Shown: piece by piece, positions 2,248-13,048 of the stretch
How positions within the stretch are numbered: the first letter of the stretch is position 1
Layout: each line of letters opens with the position of its first letter
NCBI GenBank assembly: GCA_007130345.1
Contig: SLSP01000316.1
Span: 1 to 13,048 of the forward strand
DNA from: Thermoflexales bacterium
GTDB lineage: Bacteria; Chloroflexota; Anaerolineae; B4-G1; SLSP01
Direction of reading: 5' to 3'
DNA length: 13,048 nucleotides
The notes under the pieces: model-generated
The model's database searches: none
What the model saw: the letters and a program-made list of their open reading frames with translations, nothing else
Told to the model about the DNA's origin: nothing
Made by a program: the position numbers and the translations under genes

Positions 2248-2853
2248 CCATTGCAGCCACGCGGGATAGCTGTGCGCGGCCTCCAGCATCAGCGGGAAGG
2301 GCGGCGGCGTCTGCGCGAAGACGTGCCCGGCGACGCGGCGCAGCGTCTTGTCCAGCGTAGCGTCCGGGCCGGCGGCCTCGAAGCCGAGCGTCCAGCACGC
2401 GATGCCCGCGATCTCCACGGCAGTCAGTTCGACGTCGCAGCCCCACGCCACGACCTTATCGGCGGGGACGGCGGAGAGTGTGCCATAGTCCGCGATCCGG
2501 TATTGGCGCGACCAGCGGCGCTTGCGCACGGCGATCCATGTGGCCCGCGCCGTCGCCAGCGAGACCAGCGAGTTCGCGTCCGCCGTCATCCCGAAGCTCC
2601 ACTTGGCCCAGCGCGCTGCGTACCCGACGGCTTCGGCGTGATAGCGTTCGCGGCGTGGCGCACTCTGCCGCTGCTTGATCTCGACGCGGCCCTCGCGCAC
2701 TTTGACGCCCAACGCGGCATCGGCCAGCGGGAGGTAGTGATCGACGCGGGCGGGCTGCGCTTCGGGCGGGCGCGCGTCCTGGCAGAACCAATCGCGCGCG
2801 GCGACGGGCAGTTCGCCCGTGAAGAACCAGCGGACTTCGGCGGTGTGTAGCAT
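2212..2853 (-). CDS. Hypothetical protein, possibly a divergent CYTH-like domain (EVRW in place of the ExExK motif, D.Y..D, a basic strand KVREGRVEIKQR)
   Basis: ATG at 2851-2853 with a GGGAG Shine-Dalgarno 6 nt upstream on the minus strand. Third codon positions are very GC-rich. The antisense plus-strand ORF 2251-2850 is arginine-rich junk. The CYTH resemblance comes from motif memory only. Confidence 0.5.
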   Translation of the reverse strand: MLHTAEVRWFFTGELPVAARDWFCQDARPPEAQPARVDHYLPLADAALGVKVREGRVEIKQRQSAPRRERYHAEAVGYAARWAKWSFGMTADANSLVSLATARATWIAVRKRRWSRQYRIADYGTLSAVPADKVVAWGCDVELTAVEIAGIACWTLGFEAAGPDATLDKTLRRVAGHVFAQTPPPFPLMLEAAHSYPAWLQWLMTQHQGQVVR

Positions 2854-2958
2854 AGACGACTCCCTAGGCAAATGGCAAAATGCAAGGCAAACTTTAGTTT
2901 GGGCTACATTTTCGTCCTAATAGTGACGGCTTGTAGGATACGGGCAGGACGCGAGACC

Positions 2959-4125
2959 ATGATAGATGAATTTGCCGGGCAGTTCAAGCAGAAGGGCGGG
3001 TGGGCGTTGCTATGGCTGGTATTGGTGCTGGTAGCCTGCGCGCCGCCTTCGGTCGCTTCACCGGAGATGCCGTCGGAGATGCTGCTGGAGATGTCGTCGA
3101 TGCCGACGCGCACGCCCGCGCCGCCGGTGGTCGTGGCGACGTTCACGCCGCTGCCGGAGGCGGCACCGCCGGATGGAGCGGTTGAGGTTGAGGCCCTATC
3201 TGCGCCAGAGGCCGCGCCGGACTTCGTCGCGCCGGTGGGCGTGACGGAGCACGTCGTCCAATCGGGCGAGACGCTGCTCGGACTCGCGCTGCATTACGGC
3301 GTGCCGATGGCGGCCATCCAGTTGCAAAACGACTTCGGCATTGCGACCGGGCTGCGGGCCGGGCAAATCCTGGACATCCCGCCGCGCGTGGGGTGGGAGG
3401 GCGCGTCGCCGTTCTGGGTGGTCTACGAAGTGACCGCTGGCGAGACCTTGAGCGCAATTGGCGCGCGTTACGGTTTCGACGTGGCGACGTTGCAGGGCGT
3501 CAATGGCCTGGGGGATGCTGACCGTCTCAGCATCGGGCAGCCGCTCATCCTGCCGCTGACCGCGCCCGCCGAGGTGGTAGCGCGCGCGCCGGCCCCTACC
3601 CCCACGCCGGTTCCCCCCGCGCCTCCCACCCCGACCGCTGCTCCAGGGGCCGATGCGCCTCCGCCGCCCCCCGCGCCCACCGCGACGCCCGTCCCGGCAC
3701 CGGCACCTGCCCGGCCTCCCGCCGACGTAGCCGCGCTGCCGGGCGAGATCTTCCGCCTGGTCAACGCGCAACGGGCGCAGTACGGCCTTTCGCCCCTGGC
3801 CTGGAACGCGACCCTGGCCCACGCCGCGCAGGCGCACGCCGATGACTGCTACGCGCGCGGCTGGTGCAGCCACACAGGTTCGGACGGGGCGACCGTGCGG
3901 GAGCGGATGATCCGCGCGGGATACACCCCCACGCGCTGGTCGGAGTGTTGGGCCTGGTTCCGCACCCCGGAGCAAGCGGTGGCCTTCTGGATGGATGAAG
4001 TCCCGCCCAACGATCCGCACCGGCGCACCATCCTCAGCACATGGCTCACCGAGGTAGGCGTTGGCGTCGTGCCCGGTTCTACTCACGGCTACTACTTCAT
4101 CGCCAAATTCGGTGCGCCCAGGTAA
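2959..4125 (+). CDS. Secreted protein with two LysM peptidoglycan-binding domains and a C-terminal CAP/SCP (PR-1, YkwD-like) domain
   Basis: ATG at 2959 (MIDEF..) followed by the hydrophobic signal or anchor WALLWLVLVLVACAPPSVAS. Two LysM-like units: HVVQSGETLLGLALHYGVPMAAIQLQNDF..GQILDIP and YEVTAGETLSAIGARYGFDVATLQGVNGL..GQPLILP. Pro/Thr/Ala-rich linkers separate them. The C-terminal region LVNAQRAQYGLSPLAWNATLAHAAQAHADDCY..HTGSDG..WSECWAW..AVAFWMDE..HRRTIL..EVGVG..GYYFIAKFG matches the YkwD/CAP consensus. Confidence 0.75.
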   Translation: MIDEFAGQFKQKGGWALLWLVLVLVACAPPSVASPEMPSEMLLEMSSMPTRTPAPPVVVATFTPLPEAAPPDGAVEVEALSAPEAAPDFVAPVGVTEHVVQSGETLLGLALHYGVPMAAIQLQNDFGIATGLRAGQILDIPPRVGWEGASPFWVVYEVTAGETLSAIGARYGFDVATLQGVNGLGDADRLSIGQPLILPLTAPAEVVARAPAPTPTPVPPAPPTPTAAPGADAPPPPPAPTATPVPAPAPARPPADVAALPGEIFRLVNAQRAQYGLSPLAWNATLAHAAQAHADDCYARGWCSHTGSDGATVRERMIRAGYTPTRWSECWAWFRTPEQAVAFWMDEVPPNDPHRRTILSTWLTEVGVGVVPGSTHGYYFIAKFGAPR

Positions 4126-4179: not shown

Positions 4180-5319
4180 ATGACTAACAAAGTGATCGGT
4201 ATATTGACATCAGGCGGGGACTGCCCCGGCCTCAACGCGGCGATTCGCGGTGTGGGGAAGGCGGCCAATTCCCTGGGGATACAGGTGATCGGCTATCTCG
4301 ACGGCTTCCACGGGCTGGTGGAGAATCGCTTCATCCGCCTGGGGCCACGGGAGCTTTCGGGCATCTTGACGCTCGGTGGCACCATCCTGGGCACCAGCCG
4401 CGACAAGCCGTATAAGATGCCCGCGGGCAGGCTCGGTACAATGGATATGACACCCATCGCGGTTGCCAACTACGAAAAGCAGCACCTCGACGCGCTGGTC
4501 TGCCTGGGCGGCGGGGGCACGCAGAAGAACGCCCTGCACTTGATGCAGCACGGGCTGAACGTCATCACATTGCCTAAGACTATCGACAACGACGTGGCGA
4601 AGACCGACGTGACCTTCGGCTTCGATACGGCGATGGCGGTGGCGACGGAAGCGGTGGATCGGCTGCACTCCACGGCAGAGAGTCACCATCGCGTGATCAT
4701 CGTGGAGATTATGGGGCATAACGCCGGCTGGCTGCCGCTCGGATCGGGGATCGCCGGGGGCGCGGATGTCATCCTCATCCCCGAAATCCCCTACAGCATC
4801 GAGAGCATCGCGGAGGCGGTGCTGCACCGCAGCCACACGGGCAAGCGGTTCAGCATTATAGCGATGGCTGAGGGCGCGCTATCCCAAGAGGAGGCCGAGG
4901 CAGCCCGCAAAGCCAAAGCAGCGAAGAAGAAGGCGAAGAAGGCGGACAAAAAGAGCGGCAAGAAGGGCAAGCGTAAGAAGAAGTCCCCAAAATGCGTCTC
5001 GCACACTTTCGAGAGCGTCAGTGTGCGGCTGGCACGACGGTTGGAAGAGATGACCCGCCTGGAATCGCGGGTCACGGCGTTGGGGCACTTGCAGCGCGGC
5101 GGATCTCCGAGTCCCGGCGACCGGTTGCTGGCGACGCGCCTGGGCACCGCCTGCGCGCAACTCATCGCCGAGAAGCATTATGGCGTGATGGTGGCTGTGC
5201 GAGGGAGCGAGTGCGTACCTGTTCCACTGGAAGAAGTCGCGGGCCAGCGCAAAATCGTACCCATCGACCATCCCTGGATCGTCAGCGCGCGCATGGTGGG
5301 GACGAACTTCGGGGATTAA
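4180..5319 (+). CDS. pfk: 6-phosphofructokinase (PFK-A family) with an internal lysine-rich low-complexity insertion
   Basis: AAAGGAG Shine-Dalgarno directly upstream of the ATG at 4180. Family motifs present: [29 protein letters not shown] (the GGDGS position), [22 protein letters not shown]. An insert of about 45 aa ([35 protein letters not shown]) sits between the MAEGA and RVTALGH blocks. Lys occupies the position of E. coli Gly124. Confidence 0.85.
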
Positions 5320-5386: not shown

Positions 5387-8005
<2,619 letters not shown>

Positions 8006-8018
8006 CAATTTCGAGCTT

Positions 8019-8057
8019 GAGACTTCCGAAGTCTAAACAGCAGACTTCGGAAGTCTC
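8019..8057. repeat. REP-like nested palindrome: GAGACTTCCGAAGTCT, loop aaacagc, AGACTTCGGAAGTCTC
   Basis: Perfect 16-bp inverted repeat. Each arm is itself a 7-1-7 near-palindrome (AGACTTC C GAAGTCT). It lies 12 nt downstream of the tkt stop and about 10 nt upstream of the DUF2723 start codon. No U-tract follows it. The same element recurs at 11947-11983 and in degenerate form at 10181-10250. Confidence 0.75.
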
Positions 8058-8069
8058 AGGTCGTAGAAT

Positions 8070-10073
8070 TTACTCCGCCATCAACTCGAGGGCGCGGCGG
8101 ACGATGTGCTCGGCGGTGAAGCCGAACTCTTGCTTGAGGCGCTGGTAGGGGGCCGAGGCCCCGAAGCGGTCGATGCCGATGACATCGCCGGATTTGCCGA
8201 CGTAGCGTTCCCAACCCAGGGTGACGCCGGCCTCGATAGACAGGCGCTTGAGCACGCCTTCGGGCAGGACGCTGAGTTTGTAGAAGAGCGGCTGCTGCTC
8301 GAAGAGTTCCCAACTGGGCATACTCACCACGCGCGCGCCCACCCGCCGTTCCATGAGCAGCTTCTGCGCTTCGAGGGCGTCGGCGACTTCGGAACCGGTG
8401 GCGATGAGAAGCAGGTCGATGCGGTCGATGGGCGACTCGCTGAGGACGTAGGCCCCGCGTGCCACGCCGTCGCGGGCTTTCTCGGCGGTCTCCGGCATAA
8501 TCGGTAGGTTTTGCCGGGTGAGGATGAGGGCGGTGGGGCCAGCGTGTTCCAGCGCGATCTGCCACGCGGCAGCGGTCTCGTTGGCGTCGGCAGGGCGCAG
8601 GACGAGCAGGCCGGGGATGGCGCGGAGCGACATCACATGCTCGACGGGTTCGTGCGTGGGGCCGTCCTCGCCCACGAAGATGGAGTCGTGCGTCCACACG
8701 TAGACCACGGGCAGCTTCATCAGCGCGGCGAGGCGCACGGACGGGCGCATGTAATCGGAGAAGACGAGGAACGTGCCGCCGTAGGGCCGCGCGCCGCCAT
8801 AGAGCGCCATCCCGTTGAGCAGGCCGCCCATCGCGTGCTCGCGCACGCCGAAGCGCAGGTTGCGCCCGGCATAGCTGCCCGCCTGGAACTCGCCCGGGCC
8901 GTTCATAAACGTCTTGTTGGAGGGGTCAAGGTCGGCGGAACCGCCGATGAGTTCGGGGAGGGCGGGGGCCAGCGCATTGATGACCTTGCCGGAGGCGGCG
9001 CGGGTCGCCATCACGCCAGTGTCGGGGGCGAAGCGCGGGAGGGCTGTCTCCCAGTTGGCGGGTAGTGTCCCCTTGAGCCGCCGCTGCAATTCGGCGGCCT
9101 CCTCCGGGAAGGCGGTCTCGTAGCGGGAGAGCAGGTCGCGCCATTTGGCCTCGGCGCGCTCGCCCTGGGGCGCGGCCAGCCGGTAGTGGGCCAGCACGTC
9201 ATCCGGCACAAAGAACGGTTCGTGCGAGGGCCAGTTGAGCGCGTCTTTGGTCAGGCGGATCTCCTCCGCGCCGAGGGGCGAGCCGTGCGCGTCCGCCGTC
9301 CCCTGCTTGTTGGGGCTGCCGTAGGCGATGTGCGTCCGGCAGACGATGAGATGCGGCTGACCGGGGGCGGCTTTCGCCTGCCGGATCGCGCCGTCGATGG
9401 CATCCACGTCGTGGCCGTCGATCTCCTGAACGTGCCAGCCGTAGGCGCGGAAGCGGGCGGGGACATCCTCGGTGAAGGTGATGGCGGTAGCGCCCTCGAT
9501 AGTGATGCGGTTATCATCGTAGAAGTAGATGAGGTTGTCGAGCTTCAGATGCCCGGCGATGGAGGCGGCCTCCTGCGAGACGCCCTCCATCAAGTCGCCG
9601 TCGGAGACGATGGCGTAGATGACGTGGTCGAGCAGGGCGTGGTCGGGGCGGTTGAAGCGGGCGGCCATGTGGCGCTGCGCAATCGCCATCCCCACGCCGT
9701 TGGCGAAGCCCTGGCCGAGCGGGCCGGTGGTCGTCTCGATGCCCAGGTCGGGGTCGTGTTCCGGGTGGCCGGGCGTGCGGCTCTCCCACTGGCGGAACTG
9801 CTTGAGGTCGCTCATCAGCAGCGGATAGCCGGTGAGATAGAGCAGGCTGTAGAGCAGGGCCGAGCCGTGTCCGGCGGAGAGGATGAAGCGGTCGCGGTTG
9901 GCCCAGGTGGGATTCTTGGGATTGTGCTTCAGGTGGCGCGTCCACAGGACGTAGGCCACGTCGGCCATCCCCATCGGCAGGCCGGGGTGGCCGGAGTTGG
10001 CTTGCTGCACGGTGTCCATAGCGAGGACGCGCAGGGCGTTGATGCACCGTTGGTCGAGATCGGTTTTGGGCAT
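8070..10073 (-). CDS. tkt: Transketolase
   Basis: 667 aa. Transketolase N-terminus with SGHPG, the ThDP/metal motif [13 protein letters not shown], and full-length collinear similarity to bacterial Tkt. AAGGAGA Shine-Dalgarno 7 nt upstream of the ATG (10071-10073 reverse complement). Confidence 0.95.
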
Positions 10074-10142: not shown

Positions 10143-10171
10143 TTGCATGGCGCGCGGGGGCGTGTTACAAT
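10143..10171 (+). promoter_or_regulatory. Near-consensus sigma70-type promoter: TTGCAT, 17-nt spacer, TACAAT. It faces the small low-GC cassette.
   Basis: TTGCAT at 10143-10148, a 17-nt spacer, TACAAT at 10166-10171. The predicted TSS is near 10178, giving a leader of about 133 nt that contains the degenerate REP-like copy. Confidence 0.45.
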
Positions 10172-10180
10172 CGAGGTATA

Positions 10181-10250
10181 CGGGCTTCCGAAGTCTTACA
10201 GAAAGCGTGCTAAATTTTGGGGCCTCTCAAAGACCTCGGAAGTCTACCCG
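10181..10250. repeat. Degenerate split copy of the REP-like element (cgggCTTCCGAAGTCT, 34-nt spacer, AGACcTCGGAAGTCTacccg) inside the predicted 5' leader of the cassette
   Basis: It shares the CGAAGTCT / CGGAAGTCT half-arms and the CGGG..CCCG outer pairing. There is one mismatch and a long spacer compared with the two intact copies. Confidence 0.5.
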
Positions 10251-10311
10251 ATTTCTTGAGAAGATACGAGGGTCACTTATTTTGACGGGTTTTCGAAGGG
10301 GGGGACTTTGT

Positions 10312-10641
10312 ATGAACACCACAGTGACAATGATAATTGAACCGTTCGTTCGGCGTGGGTTGTTTGCCAGTCCTGAGCAGGCTGTAACGGAAATGGCTCG
10401 TGATTATGTGTTGCGGCAAATTGAGCATCATCAGGCTATCGTTCAAAAACTACAAACCCGCTATGGAATGACTTATGAACAATTTGAGGATTACCTTCGC
10501 GCGCGTTCTGAGACTTTGCAAGCCGTCCCTGATCCGGCGCTCAACCTAGCGGTGATGGCGGAAGAGGACGACGCCCTAGATTGGAAAATTGCCCGCGAGA
10601 TGCTGCGAAGCTGGCTAGGATTGCAAATTGAGCCGGTATGA
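10312..10641 (+). CDS. Small hypothetical protein (109 aa), first gene of a low-GC two-gene cassette. Possibly an antitoxin-like helical protein, but no confident family.
   Basis: ATG at 10312 with AAGGGGG about 9 nt upstream. Roughly 47% GC against about 67% in the flanks. The acidic C-terminus reads MAEEDDALDWKIAREMLRSW. Its stop overlaps the next start (ATGA at 10638-10641). The ORF from 9997 in the track is an upstream extension through the promoter region and was rejected. Confidence 0.55.
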   Translation: MNTTVTMIIEPFVRRGLFASPEQAVTEMARDYVLRQIEHHQAIVQKLQTRYGMTYEQFEDYLRARSETLQAVPDPALNLAVMAEEDDALDWKIAREMLRSWLGLQIEPV

Positions 10642-11015
10642 ACACGCTTGCCCGCTTATTGAACCAGGTGGTCAGTGCGTTACAAACCTGGCCTGGCTGT
10701 GTGAATGTGCGTGTTTTGGAAACCCAACAGTTTTCTGATGTGCAATTTGCGCTTAAAGTGCGTGCTGAGACACATTCAGGGGCGACTTTACATGTGCGCT
10801 TGTATCAAAATCGTCAACATATTGATTACGCTTACCATTTGATCCACGAGCAATGCTCACTGCGTTGGGACAACAAAGAGCATTTTCCTACACTTTCGAC
10901 ATATCCCCATCATTTTCATACCGCTTCCGGTGAAGTGCAAGCTTCGCCGTTGACGGGCGATCCAAATCACGATTTACCTCTGGTATTGCGCTTGATTTCT
11001 AAAATCATTGATTGA
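10638..11015 (+). CDS. Small hypothetical protein (125 aa), second gene of the low-GC cassette. His-rich motif YPHHFHTASGE. Toxin-like partner is only a guess.
   Basis: ATG overlaps the upstream stop by 4 nt. Low GC, with an AT-rich, codon-atypical reading frame relative to the host. A strong hairpin follows downstream. Confidence 0.55.
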   Translation: MNTLARLLNQVVSALQTWPGCVNVRVLETQQFSDVQFALKVRAETHSGATLHVRLYQNRQHIDYAYHLIHEQCSLRWDNKEHFPTLSTYPHHFHTASGEVQASPLTGDPNHDLPLVLRLISKIID

Positions 11016-11051
11016 TGGCTGTTAAACCCCGCCAAAAGCGTTGCTCTCACA

Positions 11052-11089
11052 CAAACCCGCGCCAGGCTGCGTGACCTGGCGCGGGTTTG
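11052..11089. terminator. Bidirectional hairpin between convergent genes: CAAACCCGCGCCAGG, loop ctgcgtga, CCTGGCGCGGGTTTG
   Basis: Perfect 15-bp inverted repeat. The stem bases are AAA/TTT, which gives short T-rich stretches on both strands. It lies 37 nt after the cassette stop and 26 nt after the SDR stop. Confidence 0.55.
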
Positions 11090-11114
11090 CGTTGGGTGGA
11101 GTTATTACGCTTTT

Positions 11115-11918
11115 CTACCCCACCCCAATCGCCGCTTCCCCGCCATCCACCGGGATGACGTCGCCGGAAATCCACGCGACGCGCGGATCGGCCAGGGCGA
11201 CGATGACCTGGGCCACGTCCTCCGGCGTGGTGAGGCGGCCGGCAGGATGGTGCGTCTGCACGGCGGCGAGGATGGCTTCGTGGCCGGGGATGGCGCGCAG
11301 GGCGGGGGTGTCGCACACGCCGGGCCGCAGGCAGTTGACGGCGATGCCGCGCGGCGCGAGTTCCAGCGCGAGTTGGCGCGCGTGCGCCTCGAGCGCGGCC
11401 TTCGCCGCCGAGACCGCGCCGTAGTTGGCGGTCGCCCGCTCCGCGCCCAGGCTGCTCAGGGCGTAGATGCGGCTCCCGCGCGCGAGCAGCCCGGCGTGCG
11501 TCAAATCCTGGCTCCAGTAGACGAGGCTGTGGGCCATCACGCGCAGGGTCATGTCCATTTGTTCCTCGGAGAGGGCTTTTTCTGCGGGATCATCTGCAAT
11601 GTAGGGGCGCAGGCTGCCGAAGGCCAGCGAGTGGACGAGCAAGTGGAGGGGGGTGTCGCCGAGCGCCTCCGGGAGCGCGGCGATGACACGGGCGCGGCGT
11701 CGGGCGTCGGCGGCGTTGGTGTTGAAGAAGACGGCGCGCCGGCCGGCGGCCTCCACGTCGGCGATGACGGCCTCGGCCTGCGCGATGCTGCGGCGCGGGT
11801 CGAGGTGGACGCCGCAGATGTGCATCCCGGCGGCGGCCAGCGCGCGCGCTATCGCCGCGCCGAACCCGCTCGACGCGCCGAGGATCAAGGCCCAACGGTT
11901 TTCCAGGGATGGGGACAT
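11115..11918 (-). CDS. SDR-family oxidoreductase, enoyl-ACP reductase-like (FabI/FabL-type Tyr-x6-Lys)
   Basis: Rossmann N-terminus ALILGASSGFGAAIARALAAAG. The catalytic region YGAVSAAKAALEAH resembles the FabI Y-x6-K block (YNVMGVAKAALE). AGGAGG Shine-Dalgarno 5-6 nt before the ATG (reverse complement of 11916-11918). Confidence 0.7.
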   Translation of the reverse strand: MSPSLENRWALILGASSGFGAAIARALAAAGMHICGVHLDPRRSIAQAEAVIADVEAAGRRAVFFNTNAADARRRARVIAALPEALGDTPLHLLVHSLAFGSLRPYIADDPAEKALSEEQMDMTLRVMAHSLVYWSQDLTHAGLLARGSRIYALSSLGAERATANYGAVSAAKAALEAHARQLALELAPRGIAVNCLRPGVCDTPALRAIPGHEAILAAVQTHHPAGRLTTPEDVAQVIVALADPRVAWISGDVIPVDGGEAAIGVG

Positions 11919-11946: not shown

Positions 11947-11983
11947 CCAGACTTCCGAAGTCTTCAAGACTTCGGAAGTCTGG
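11947..11983. repeat. REP-like nested palindrome, second intact copy: CCAGACTTCCGAAGTCT, loop tca, AGACTTCGGAAGTCTGG
   Basis: Perfect 17-bp stem with a 3-nt loop. It sits between the stop of the SPFH gene (11990) and the start of the SDR gene (11918). Its arms are identical to the copy at 8019-8057. Confidence 0.75.
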
Positions 11984-11989
11984 AACGTT

Positions 11990-13048
11990 CTACGCTTCTG
12001 ACTTGCCCGTGACCGCGCCGAGGAGTCCGTTGGCCGTCCCGAAGAGGTTGATGGGGCTGTGGCCGTCGGTGATGAGGATGCTTTGCAGGCCCAGGCCGCC
12101 GAGCAGCTTCGCTTGGAGTTCCGGCCCGGCCAGGGCGATGGCCCGGAGGGTGTCCGGCCCGATGGCGGCGATGCGCTCTTTGAACTCGGCCATCGTGATC
12201 TCGGCCATCTGCTCGGCTTTGGCGACGTCCATCTCGTTGAGGGCGCGCTGATGGGTCAGTTCGGCCTCCTGCTGCTCGCGCAGGTAGGCCAGTTCGGTCT
12301 CCTGCTTGACGCGCTGCGCTTCGGCCTCCTGCCGCGCCAGCGTGACGGCGGCCTCGCCTTTGATGCGCTCGGCTTCGGCGCGGGCGCGGGCCTCGGCGGT
12401 CGCCTCGCCCGTCGCGGTGATGGCGGCGTTCTCGGCCTCCAGCTCGATCAGCTTTTTGCGCTCGGCCTCGGCGGCGCGCTTGTCCACAATCCCCTGGCGC
12501 TCCAACTTGGCGCGGGCCTCTTGCGCGATGCGCTCCGCGTCGTGGCGGGCGGCGGCCTCCTGCGCGTCGGTCGTGATCTTGATGGCGATCTGCACCGATT
12601 TTTGCAGGCTCTTCAGCGTCTCCTCGTCAATTGGCTCCACCGATTGGATGTCAATGTTGGTGATGACTAGGTGGTTGGTCGAGAAGCGGAAGTCGTCGCC
12701 GACGTGGCCCTTATCGTCGGCGCCGAAGACGGCAGCGCGGATGATTTTGGCCGAGTTGCGGTGGAATTCCTCGAAGCGCGAGCCGGCCACCGCGCCGCGC
12801 ACGCGGGAGGCGACGGCCTTGCACGCATCGCCGACGAAGTCGGGGGCCTGGAACAGGCGGGCGGCGGCCTCCGGGTCATCCTTATCCACATCGAAGTACC
12901 AGTTGTAGGAAAGCTGCAACTGCAAGCGGGCGTGGTCGGCGGTCTCGACGGTGAAGATGTCGGTCATAAAGTCCGGGCCGAGCAGCAGCGCGAGCGATTT
13001 GATGAGGTTGGGCTGCTTGGGCTTGCCGCCGGAGAGGCTGAGGACGGT
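11990..13048 (-). CDS. SPFH/band-7 domain protein, flotillin-like (YqiK/FloT type). It is partial: the 5' end lies beyond the window.
   Basis: The reading frame stays open to the window edge upstream of the listed Met. The end of the SPFH domain (..HLVITNIDIQSVEPIDEETLKSLQKSVQIAIKITTDAQEAAARHDAERIAQEARA) is followed by an EA/R/K-rich coiled-coil region (AEAERKKLIELEAENAA.., AEAQRVKQETELAYLREQQEAEL) and a Gly-rich C-terminus, as is typical of flotillins. Confidence 0.75.
   Translation of the reverse strand, partial: TVLSLSGGKPKQPNLIKSLALLLGPDFMTDIFTVETADHARLQLQLSYNWYFDVDKDDPEAAARLFQAPDFVGDACKAVASRVRGAVAGSRFEEFHRNSAKIIRAAVFGADDKGHVGDDFRFSTNHLVITNIDIQSVEPIDEETLKSLQKSVQIAIKITTDAQEAAARHDAERIAQEARAKLERQGIVDKRAAEAERKKLIELEAENAAITATGEATAEARARAEAERIKGEAAVTLARQEAEAQRVKQETELAYLREQQEAELTHQRALNEMDVAKAEQMAEITMAEFKERIAAIGPDTLRAIALAGPELQAKLLGGLGLQSILITDGHSPINLFGTANGLLGAVTGKSEA

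Follow-up and report, generated by a model that had tools for sequence, protein, structure and literature searches.

A probable TumE-TumA-type toxin-antitoxin operon, recently imported between transketolase and short-chain dehydrogenase genes of a Thermoflexales bacterium

A low-GC cassette of two small genes in the high-GC genome of a Thermoflexales bacterium (Chloroflexota, Anaerolineae) is very probably a recently imported type II toxin-antitoxin (TA) operon of the TumE-TumA superfamily, lying in the intergenic gap that separates a transketolase gene from a short-chain dehydrogenase/enoyl-reductase (SDR) gene. The window analysed here is the whole stretch of 13,048 nucleotides from contig SLSP01000316.1. 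Within it, gene 1 (ORF1, 109 aa) occupies positions 10312-10641 and gene 2 (ORF2, 125 aa) positions 10638-11015, both on the + strand, and the start of ORF2 overlaps the stop of ORF1 in an ATGA at 10638-10641 that would couple their translation. The transketolase gene on the left (8070-10073) and the SDR gene on the right (11115-11918, with its stop at 11115) are both on the opposite strand. These coordinates agree with an initial annotation made from the sequence alone, which had described two ATGA-coupled ORFs of this size, had taken them for a type II TA or similar two-component module, and had assigned neither protein to a family. The module reading is now supported, as gene 2 is TumE by Pfam and by predicted fold and the pair is co-conserved. 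An in-frame extension of ORF1 upstream to a TTG at 9997 (214 aa) was considered and rejected, because it would overlap the opposite-strand transketolase gene and because the homologues are 107-117 aa long. TumE-TumA is a TA superfamily with experimental validation, and in it the toxin gene lies downstream of the antitoxin gene (Durairaj et al., Nature 2023, PMC10584680). The system is of an already described kind, and it is the antitoxin of this subgroup that escapes current models.

The profile searches that the initial annotation had proposed gave a direct answer for gene 2. Its product scores 52.6 bits (E 4.6e-14) on Pfam PF20126 (TumE, formerly DUF6516), whose gathering score is 23.4, over profile positions 4-77 of 81, and the same domain is present in 120 of 120 gene 2 homologues among the matches listed. 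The AlphaFold2 model of gene 2 (pLDDT 91.2) has a helix at residues 3-17, seven strands and a second helix at residues 109-124, in agreement with the published alpha+beta fold of TumE, in which two helices pack on a seven-stranded antiparallel sheet (PMC10584680). A search with this model found no specific PDB neighbour, as the same paper reports for TumE. No sequence or fold relationship was detected between gene 2 and toxins of the RelE, MazF, VapC or HicA type.

For reference sequences, standing in for the six validated pairs, we used the TumE and TumA named by PGAP on a Nostoc plasmid. Profile alignment with hhalign relates gene 2 to the Nostoc TumE with 96.5% probability. The two share R76, D78, H82, F83, P84, P90, H91, H92 and H94, that is, the stretch R-x-D-x3-H-F-P-x5-P-H-H-x-H, which in gene 2 is RWDNKEHFPTLSTYPHHFH (residues 76-94, positions 10863-10919). 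In the family alignment R76, D78, N79, K80, E81, P90 and H92 are invariant, and the PHHFH cluster is among the most conserved positions. The histidine cluster pointed out in the initial annotation is thus present and conserved, and its occurrence in the Nostoc protein identifies it as a family signature. Gene 2 is about 30% identical to a canonical TumE, and against the NCBIfam TumE equivalog NF045777 it scores 35.9 bits (E 6.4e-9), below the cutoff of 90, which places it outside the experimentally validated gammaproteobacterial subcluster. Judged by sequence and predicted fold, gene 2 is a TumE toxin, as a superfamily member outside the tested subgroup.

The assignment of gene 1 is less direct. 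Searches of its product against Pfam, NCBIfam, PADLOC and PHROGs returned no match, and neither the NCBIfam TumA model NF045776 nor the PADLOC model PDC-M44A was matched up to E 10; canonical TumA, the 76-aa protein of NF045776, corresponds to PDC-M44A. The gene 1 family is small, with 138 cluster representatives at E <= 0.001 among 1.84 billion proteins, and a word-index search gave 194 homologues at 63-78% identity. PF26405 is precomputed on two of the homologues and was absent when both were rescanned against Pfam. The AlphaFold model (pLDDT 90.9) is all-helical, with four helices forming a generic helical bundle or hairpin. Two segments stand out in the family alignment: an invariant N-terminal motif EPFVRRGLF (residues 10-18, positions 10339-10365) and a conserved C-terminal helix rich in acidic residues and tryptophan, MAEEDDALDWKIAREMLRSWLGL (residues 82-104, positions 10555-10623). 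The acidic helical C-terminus noticed in the initial annotation is thus present, and it ranks among the most conserved positions of the family. Residues ~68-79 (positions 10513-10548) are absent from the shorter, distant relatives and are therefore an insertion in gene 1.

A link from gene 1 to TumA was found through an intermediate family. On a Pseudanabaena plasmid, a 108-aa protein encoded upstream of a DUF6516 gene matches the NCBIfam TumA model with E 3e-12. An alignment of the family of this protein (A3) was compared by hhalign with a gene 1 alignment widened with distant representatives (A4; 42 members, Neff 4.8), and the two were related with 87.3% probability and E 3.8e-6, collinear over 79 columns. 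They have three motifs in common: G-x-x-x-S...E-x-A at the start of helix 2, K-Y-G-M-x-F/Y-x-x-F, and the acidic helix D/E-D-x-x-E/D-W. In addition, the NCBIfam TumA model is weakly matched by 5 of the 42 members of A4 (best E 0.0029), more members than match any other family. A direct hhalign comparison of the gene 1 profiles with a single canonical TumA sequence gave a null result. On this evidence we take gene 1 most likely to be a long and divergent TumA antitoxin, and grade the link as inconclusive to likely, since the homology runs through the single intermediate family A3.

It is very unlikely that gene 1 is neither a TumA homologue nor an antitoxin, and instead an unrelated helical partner that travels with TumE, for example as its regulator, chaperone or adaptor. 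Such a partner would fit the missing direct match to any TumA model, the generic fold, the mere 9% probability given against A3 by the less diverse gene 1 profile A1, and the description of TumE partners as diverse and unrelated (PMC10584680). It is opposed by the three common motifs in the collinear A4-A3 alignment, by the weak direct TumA matches of the five members, and by the behaviour of the pair, in which a gene 1 placed upstream with a 4-nt overlap, co-evolving tightly with TumE and outlasting it fits an antitoxin.

That behaviour was followed across many loci. Two look-ups that started from gene 1 homologues showed TumE directly downstream in unrelated contexts; conversely, in three look-ups selected by TumE, a partner of 110-114 aa was directly upstream, and two of these partners are gene 1 relatives (hhalign, 99.9%). 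The immediate upstream position of gene 1 in one operon with TumE is the layout of TumA. When metagenomes were scanned with the alignment of gene 1, 80 loci were obtained; counting the two earlier loci and the window, 70 had enough downstream sequence. The pair is intact in 49 of the 70, and all 49 have the 4-nt start/stop overlap. Of the others, 12 have a TumE with a frameshift, a truncation or an internal deletion and 9 have no TumE, and in 14 of the 21 gene 1 is still full length, counts that were ascertained through gene 1 only. Over 41 distinct pairs, the distance matrices of the two proteins correlate with a Mantel r of 0.845, which none of 2000 permutations reaches. Coupling, co-inheritance and the loss of the downstream gene with the upstream one kept are what an antitoxin-toxin pair predicts, and a toxin lost or decayed while gene 1 survives is as expected for an antitoxin. 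Neither of the two observations that the initial annotation had named against its reading, a housekeeping family with host-like composition or a lack of co-conservation, applies to the pair.

The decayed loci also give some reason to ask whether the copy in the window is itself a silent or decaying passenger, intact in sequence and either unexpressed or no longer toxic in its host. TumE is degraded or missing in 21 of 70 related loci (~30%), the promoter described below matches the consensus at only 9 of 12 positions, and a codon composition far from that of the host could limit expression. However, both ORFs in the window are full length and keep every invariant residue of both family alignments, neither the ATGA coupling nor a Shine-Dalgarno-like site has been lost, and the same cassette occurs in the same context in three independent assemblies with 99.9-100% identity. 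We regard a passenger as hardly probable.

Several related loci deserve mention in their own right. Stages of TumE decay (internal deletion, frameshift, early stop) were seen in some and a solitary full-length gene 1 in others; loci with one or the other condition are L100 (5323-5511), L120 (5448-5712), L124 (483-650) and L128 (1515-1730), and, downstream of the match, L097, L107, L110 and L139. A 489-aa ORF comes next in L107. Locus L170 (1-5393) carries a more distant TumA-like/TumE pair among UPF0175, HicB-like UPF0150 and HicA genes with a DDE transposase adjoining, and the region looks like a TA island. In L001 the TumE ORF (1420-1797) is left out of the ENA gene call though it is 100% identical to that of the window; public annotations may be missing TumE genes of this clade.

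The foreign origin of the cassette is seen most clearly in its composition. Its GC content is 0.480, compared with 0.684 for the flanks (4.8 kb), as the initial annotation had noticed, and the contrast at third codon positions is stronger than was stated there: GC3 is 0.50 in gene 1 and 0.44 in gene 2, against 0.80-0.90 in five host genes. This gap of about 0.4 indicates a recent import. Of 28 loci compared, 24 have a cassette poorer in GC than the sequence around it (median difference -0.05), and the window is the extreme among them. Homologues at 60-78% identity are found in Chloroflexota/Anaerolineae, in a Thermodesulfobacteriota MAG and in Candidatus Hakubella, and their genomic contexts are unrelated; one of them has HicAB and UPF0175 TA genes and a DDE transposase as neighbours. 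Atypical composition and a patchy distribution over several phyla together mark a horizontally mobile module, and the earlier proposal of horizontal acquisition is well borne out by the GC3 gap, the unrelated contexts and the range of phyla. Among 80 genomes of Anaerolineae and Thermoflexales MAGs with an SDR orthologue (58-79% identity), none has the pair near that gene, and at none of the 80 loci fetched is the transketolase or Major Vault Protein (MVP)-shoulder neighbour kept; because synteny around the SDR orthologue is not conserved in these loci, they do not offer a comparable empty site.

The genes around the cassette have features of their own. MVP-shoulder proteins are unusual in bacteria, and the neighbour just mentioned, a 325-aa ORF downstream of the SDR gene (11990-12967, - strand), carries the MVP 'shoulder' domain PF11978 at residues 1-114 (E 1.4e-49), followed by a long Ala/Glu-rich coiled-coil region; its true start may lie beyond the ATG. 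A phosphofructokinase gene (PF00365; 4153-5319, + strand) has a lysine/alanine-rich insertion of 34 residues at ~4880-5010, coinciding with a strongly positive AT skew of 0.40 at 4801-5100. In a TMEM260-like gene of 873 aa (5387-8008, - strand), GC dips to ~0.62 at 6900-7100 against ~0.74 elsewhere; the dip coincides with the peptide GQRAKSKMKNSAPLRLCAFALNLCPSSK and may reflect a short inserted segment. Lower GC (0.49-0.60) is also found at 1-600, before and into a 248-aa membrane-protein ORF that has no Pfam match, and at 2700-3150, at the divergent junction before a LysM-CAP protein gene. Rfam and tRNA scans of the window gave no match.

Structures on either side suggest where the imported segment ends. 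On the left, the repeat remnant that had been noticed upstream of gene 1 is a degenerate copy (10185-10242; 18-nt arms, 83% complementary; core CTTCCGAAGT / ACCTCGGAAG) of the palindrome AGACTTCCGAAGTCT. Perfect hairpin copies of this palindrome, with 15-bp stems, lie at 8022-8054 and 11951-11979 (z -7.7 and -5.3), just 3' of the transketolase and MVP-shoulder genes, and its 10-mer core has 11 matches where 1.04 are expected. The copies resemble a family of REP-like or terminator repeats belonging to the host genome. The degenerate copy would then be host intergenic DNA at the left limit of the import, and since it is of host type, the imported DNA probably begins to the right of it.

The right limit of the low-GC segment is a GC-rich 18-bp hairpin at 11049-11092, between the convergent TumE (+) and SDR (-) genes. 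Its arms (11049-11066 and 11075-11092) are 18 nt long and 94% complementary, and its folding z-score is -4.2 for the + and -6.2 for the - strand; none of 200 shuffles folds as well. No proper U-tract follows it, and a terminator scan listed only a sub-stem with a weak T-run. The strong hairpin said in the initial annotation to close the cassette is thus real as a fold; to call it a terminator outright would be somewhat too firm, and it is likely a bidirectional terminator or a transcript-end structure.

Between the left repeat and gene 1, a promoter-like site TTGAGA-16 nt-TATTTT at 10256-10283 (+ strand) ends 28 nt before the ATG of ORF1. It is a plausible site; the description 'near-consensus' was generous, as it agrees with the consensus at 9 of 12 positions (5 of 6 in the -35 and 4 of 6 in the -10 element). 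A promoter scan of the region found 2 sites where 0.5 are expected, and a second candidate, TTGCAT-17-TACAAT with a TG, can be read by eye at 10143-10171. A purine-rich, Shine-Dalgarno-like stretch, GAAGGGGGGGA, read from the sequence at 10296-10306 (+ strand), precedes the start of ORF1 by 5 nt, and most homologous loci have a GGAG-type site in the same place. For the 5' leader (10172-10311), folding does not exceed that of shuffled sequence (z -0.9). An operator or promoter moving with the cassette was also looked for and rejected: in the upstream 110 nt of 44 loci, the only common motifs were -10-like TATAAT boxes and the GGAG sites.

Autoregulation of the operon by gene 1 is unsupported, because the protein has no DNA-binding fold and the upstream regions have no conserved operator. 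No RHH, HTH, AbrB or Phd-type DNA-binding domain was detectable in it. Its N-terminus (TVTMII...RRGLFASPEQAV) has a ParD-like look that might suggest a ribbon-helix-helix, an assignment that we rejected: AlphaFold predicts a helix there, searches of Pfam and NCBIfam gave no RHH match, and one family member shows a weak ParD match with E 0.018.

From these features and the published TumE-TumA pairs, a mechanism can be proposed. A single transcript would start from the promoter just upstream of gene 1; the antitoxin would be translated first, and the ATGA overlap would couple the translation of TumE to it. The helical antitoxin is expected to bind and neutralize TumE, probably through its invariant acidic/tryptophan C-terminal helix, although this contact surface is speculative. 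By analogy with studied TumE proteins, once the supply of antitoxin stops, free TumE would shut down protein synthesis. All six gammaproteobacterial TumE proteins that were tested are toxic in E. coli and are neutralized by their cognate co-expressed TumA (Durairaj 2023, PMC10584680), and we infer toxicity, neutralization and the translation target here from those six pairs. For the TumE of A. tepidum, one protein for which metabolic labelling was done, incorporation of 35S-Met was reduced (PMC10584680). An RNase activity of TumE is proposed and unproven (PMC10584680). More speculatively, the toxin in the window would probably cut RNA with the conserved R-x-D...H-F-P...P-H-H-x-H site, in which R76, D78, H82, H91, H92 and H94 are candidate catalytic residues.

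Some departure from this known mechanism is conceivable, though improbable. The ~110-aa partner, with its EPFVRRGLF motif and inserted helical segment, could form a distinct branch in which TumE is neutralized or regulated unlike by the 76-aa TumA; alternatively, the four histidines of TumE together with its aspartate and arginine could form a metal site and act on translation beyond simple RNA cleavage, or the pair could be a phage-defence switch.

A related question is whether the main service of the pair is abortive infection or another defence against phage, and not addiction or stabilization; infection would then free TumE, and translation would stop in the infected cell. Such a reading bears on biological role, and the molecular mechanism could stay the same. 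A defence role comes into consideration because canonical TumA and TumE equal the PADLOC defence candidate PDC-M44 (146.9 and 222.7 bits to PDC-M44A and PDC-M44B, respectively); gene 2 itself matches PDC-M44B weakly (E 1.6e-9), and other TA genes cluster around one relative. However, PDC-M44 is a candidate system for which we found no paper that names it, gene 1 does not match PDC-M44A, the neighbours in the window are housekeeping genes and not a defence island, and the searches gave no PHROG match and a single weak match to a phage record. Defence as the main role is a tentative and somewhat unlikely proposal, and an imported TumE-TumA-type operon acting as a TA module continues to be the preferred reading.

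This reading provides a firm annotation for a pair labelled 'hypothetical protein' and 'DUF6516 family protein' in public records. It also ties the family of ~110-aa partners that accompany Chloroflexota-type TumE to TumA through remote homology, which suggests that at least some of the 'unrelated' TumE partners are divergent versions of one antitoxin. The decay of the toxin with its partner persisting supports the toxin and antitoxin roles outside Gammaproteobacteria, and the compact conserved set R76, D78, H82, H91, H92 and H94 offers mutagenesis targets for the chemistry of TumE.

We have compared the pair with three known kinds of system. It differs from classical type II TA systems such as RelBE in its toxin, which is unrelated to those of the RelE, MazF, VapC and HicA types, and in its antitoxin, which has none of the DNA-binding domains named above; it resembles them in having the antitoxin gene first, overlapping frames, small proteins and horizontal spread, as well as translation as the target, as reported for TumE. 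With the PADLOC system PDC-M44 (A+B), whose two models match canonical TumA and TumE end to end, the likeness lies in PDC-M44B, a TumE model to which gene 2 gives its weak match. Unlike that system, whose defence function is only a candidate one, the pair has a first gene that PDC-M44A does not match, so the PADLOC models would not call it. Compared with the TumE-TumA superfamily itself (Durairaj et al., PMC10584680), gene 2 falls outside the tested gammaproteobacterial subcluster (35.9 bits against the cutoff of 90), and the partner is missed by the TumA models and is longer, 109 aa against ~76 aa, with an extra N-terminal helical segment and the insertion of ~12 residues. In other respects the pair agrees with this superfamily: the toxin belongs to the family by HMM and by predicted fold, the operon is bicistronic, with a small partner gene that precedes and overlaps the toxin gene, the His-rich H-F-P...P-H-H-x-H stretch is also present in the TumE named by PGAP, and the partner is remotely similar to TumA-related proteins.
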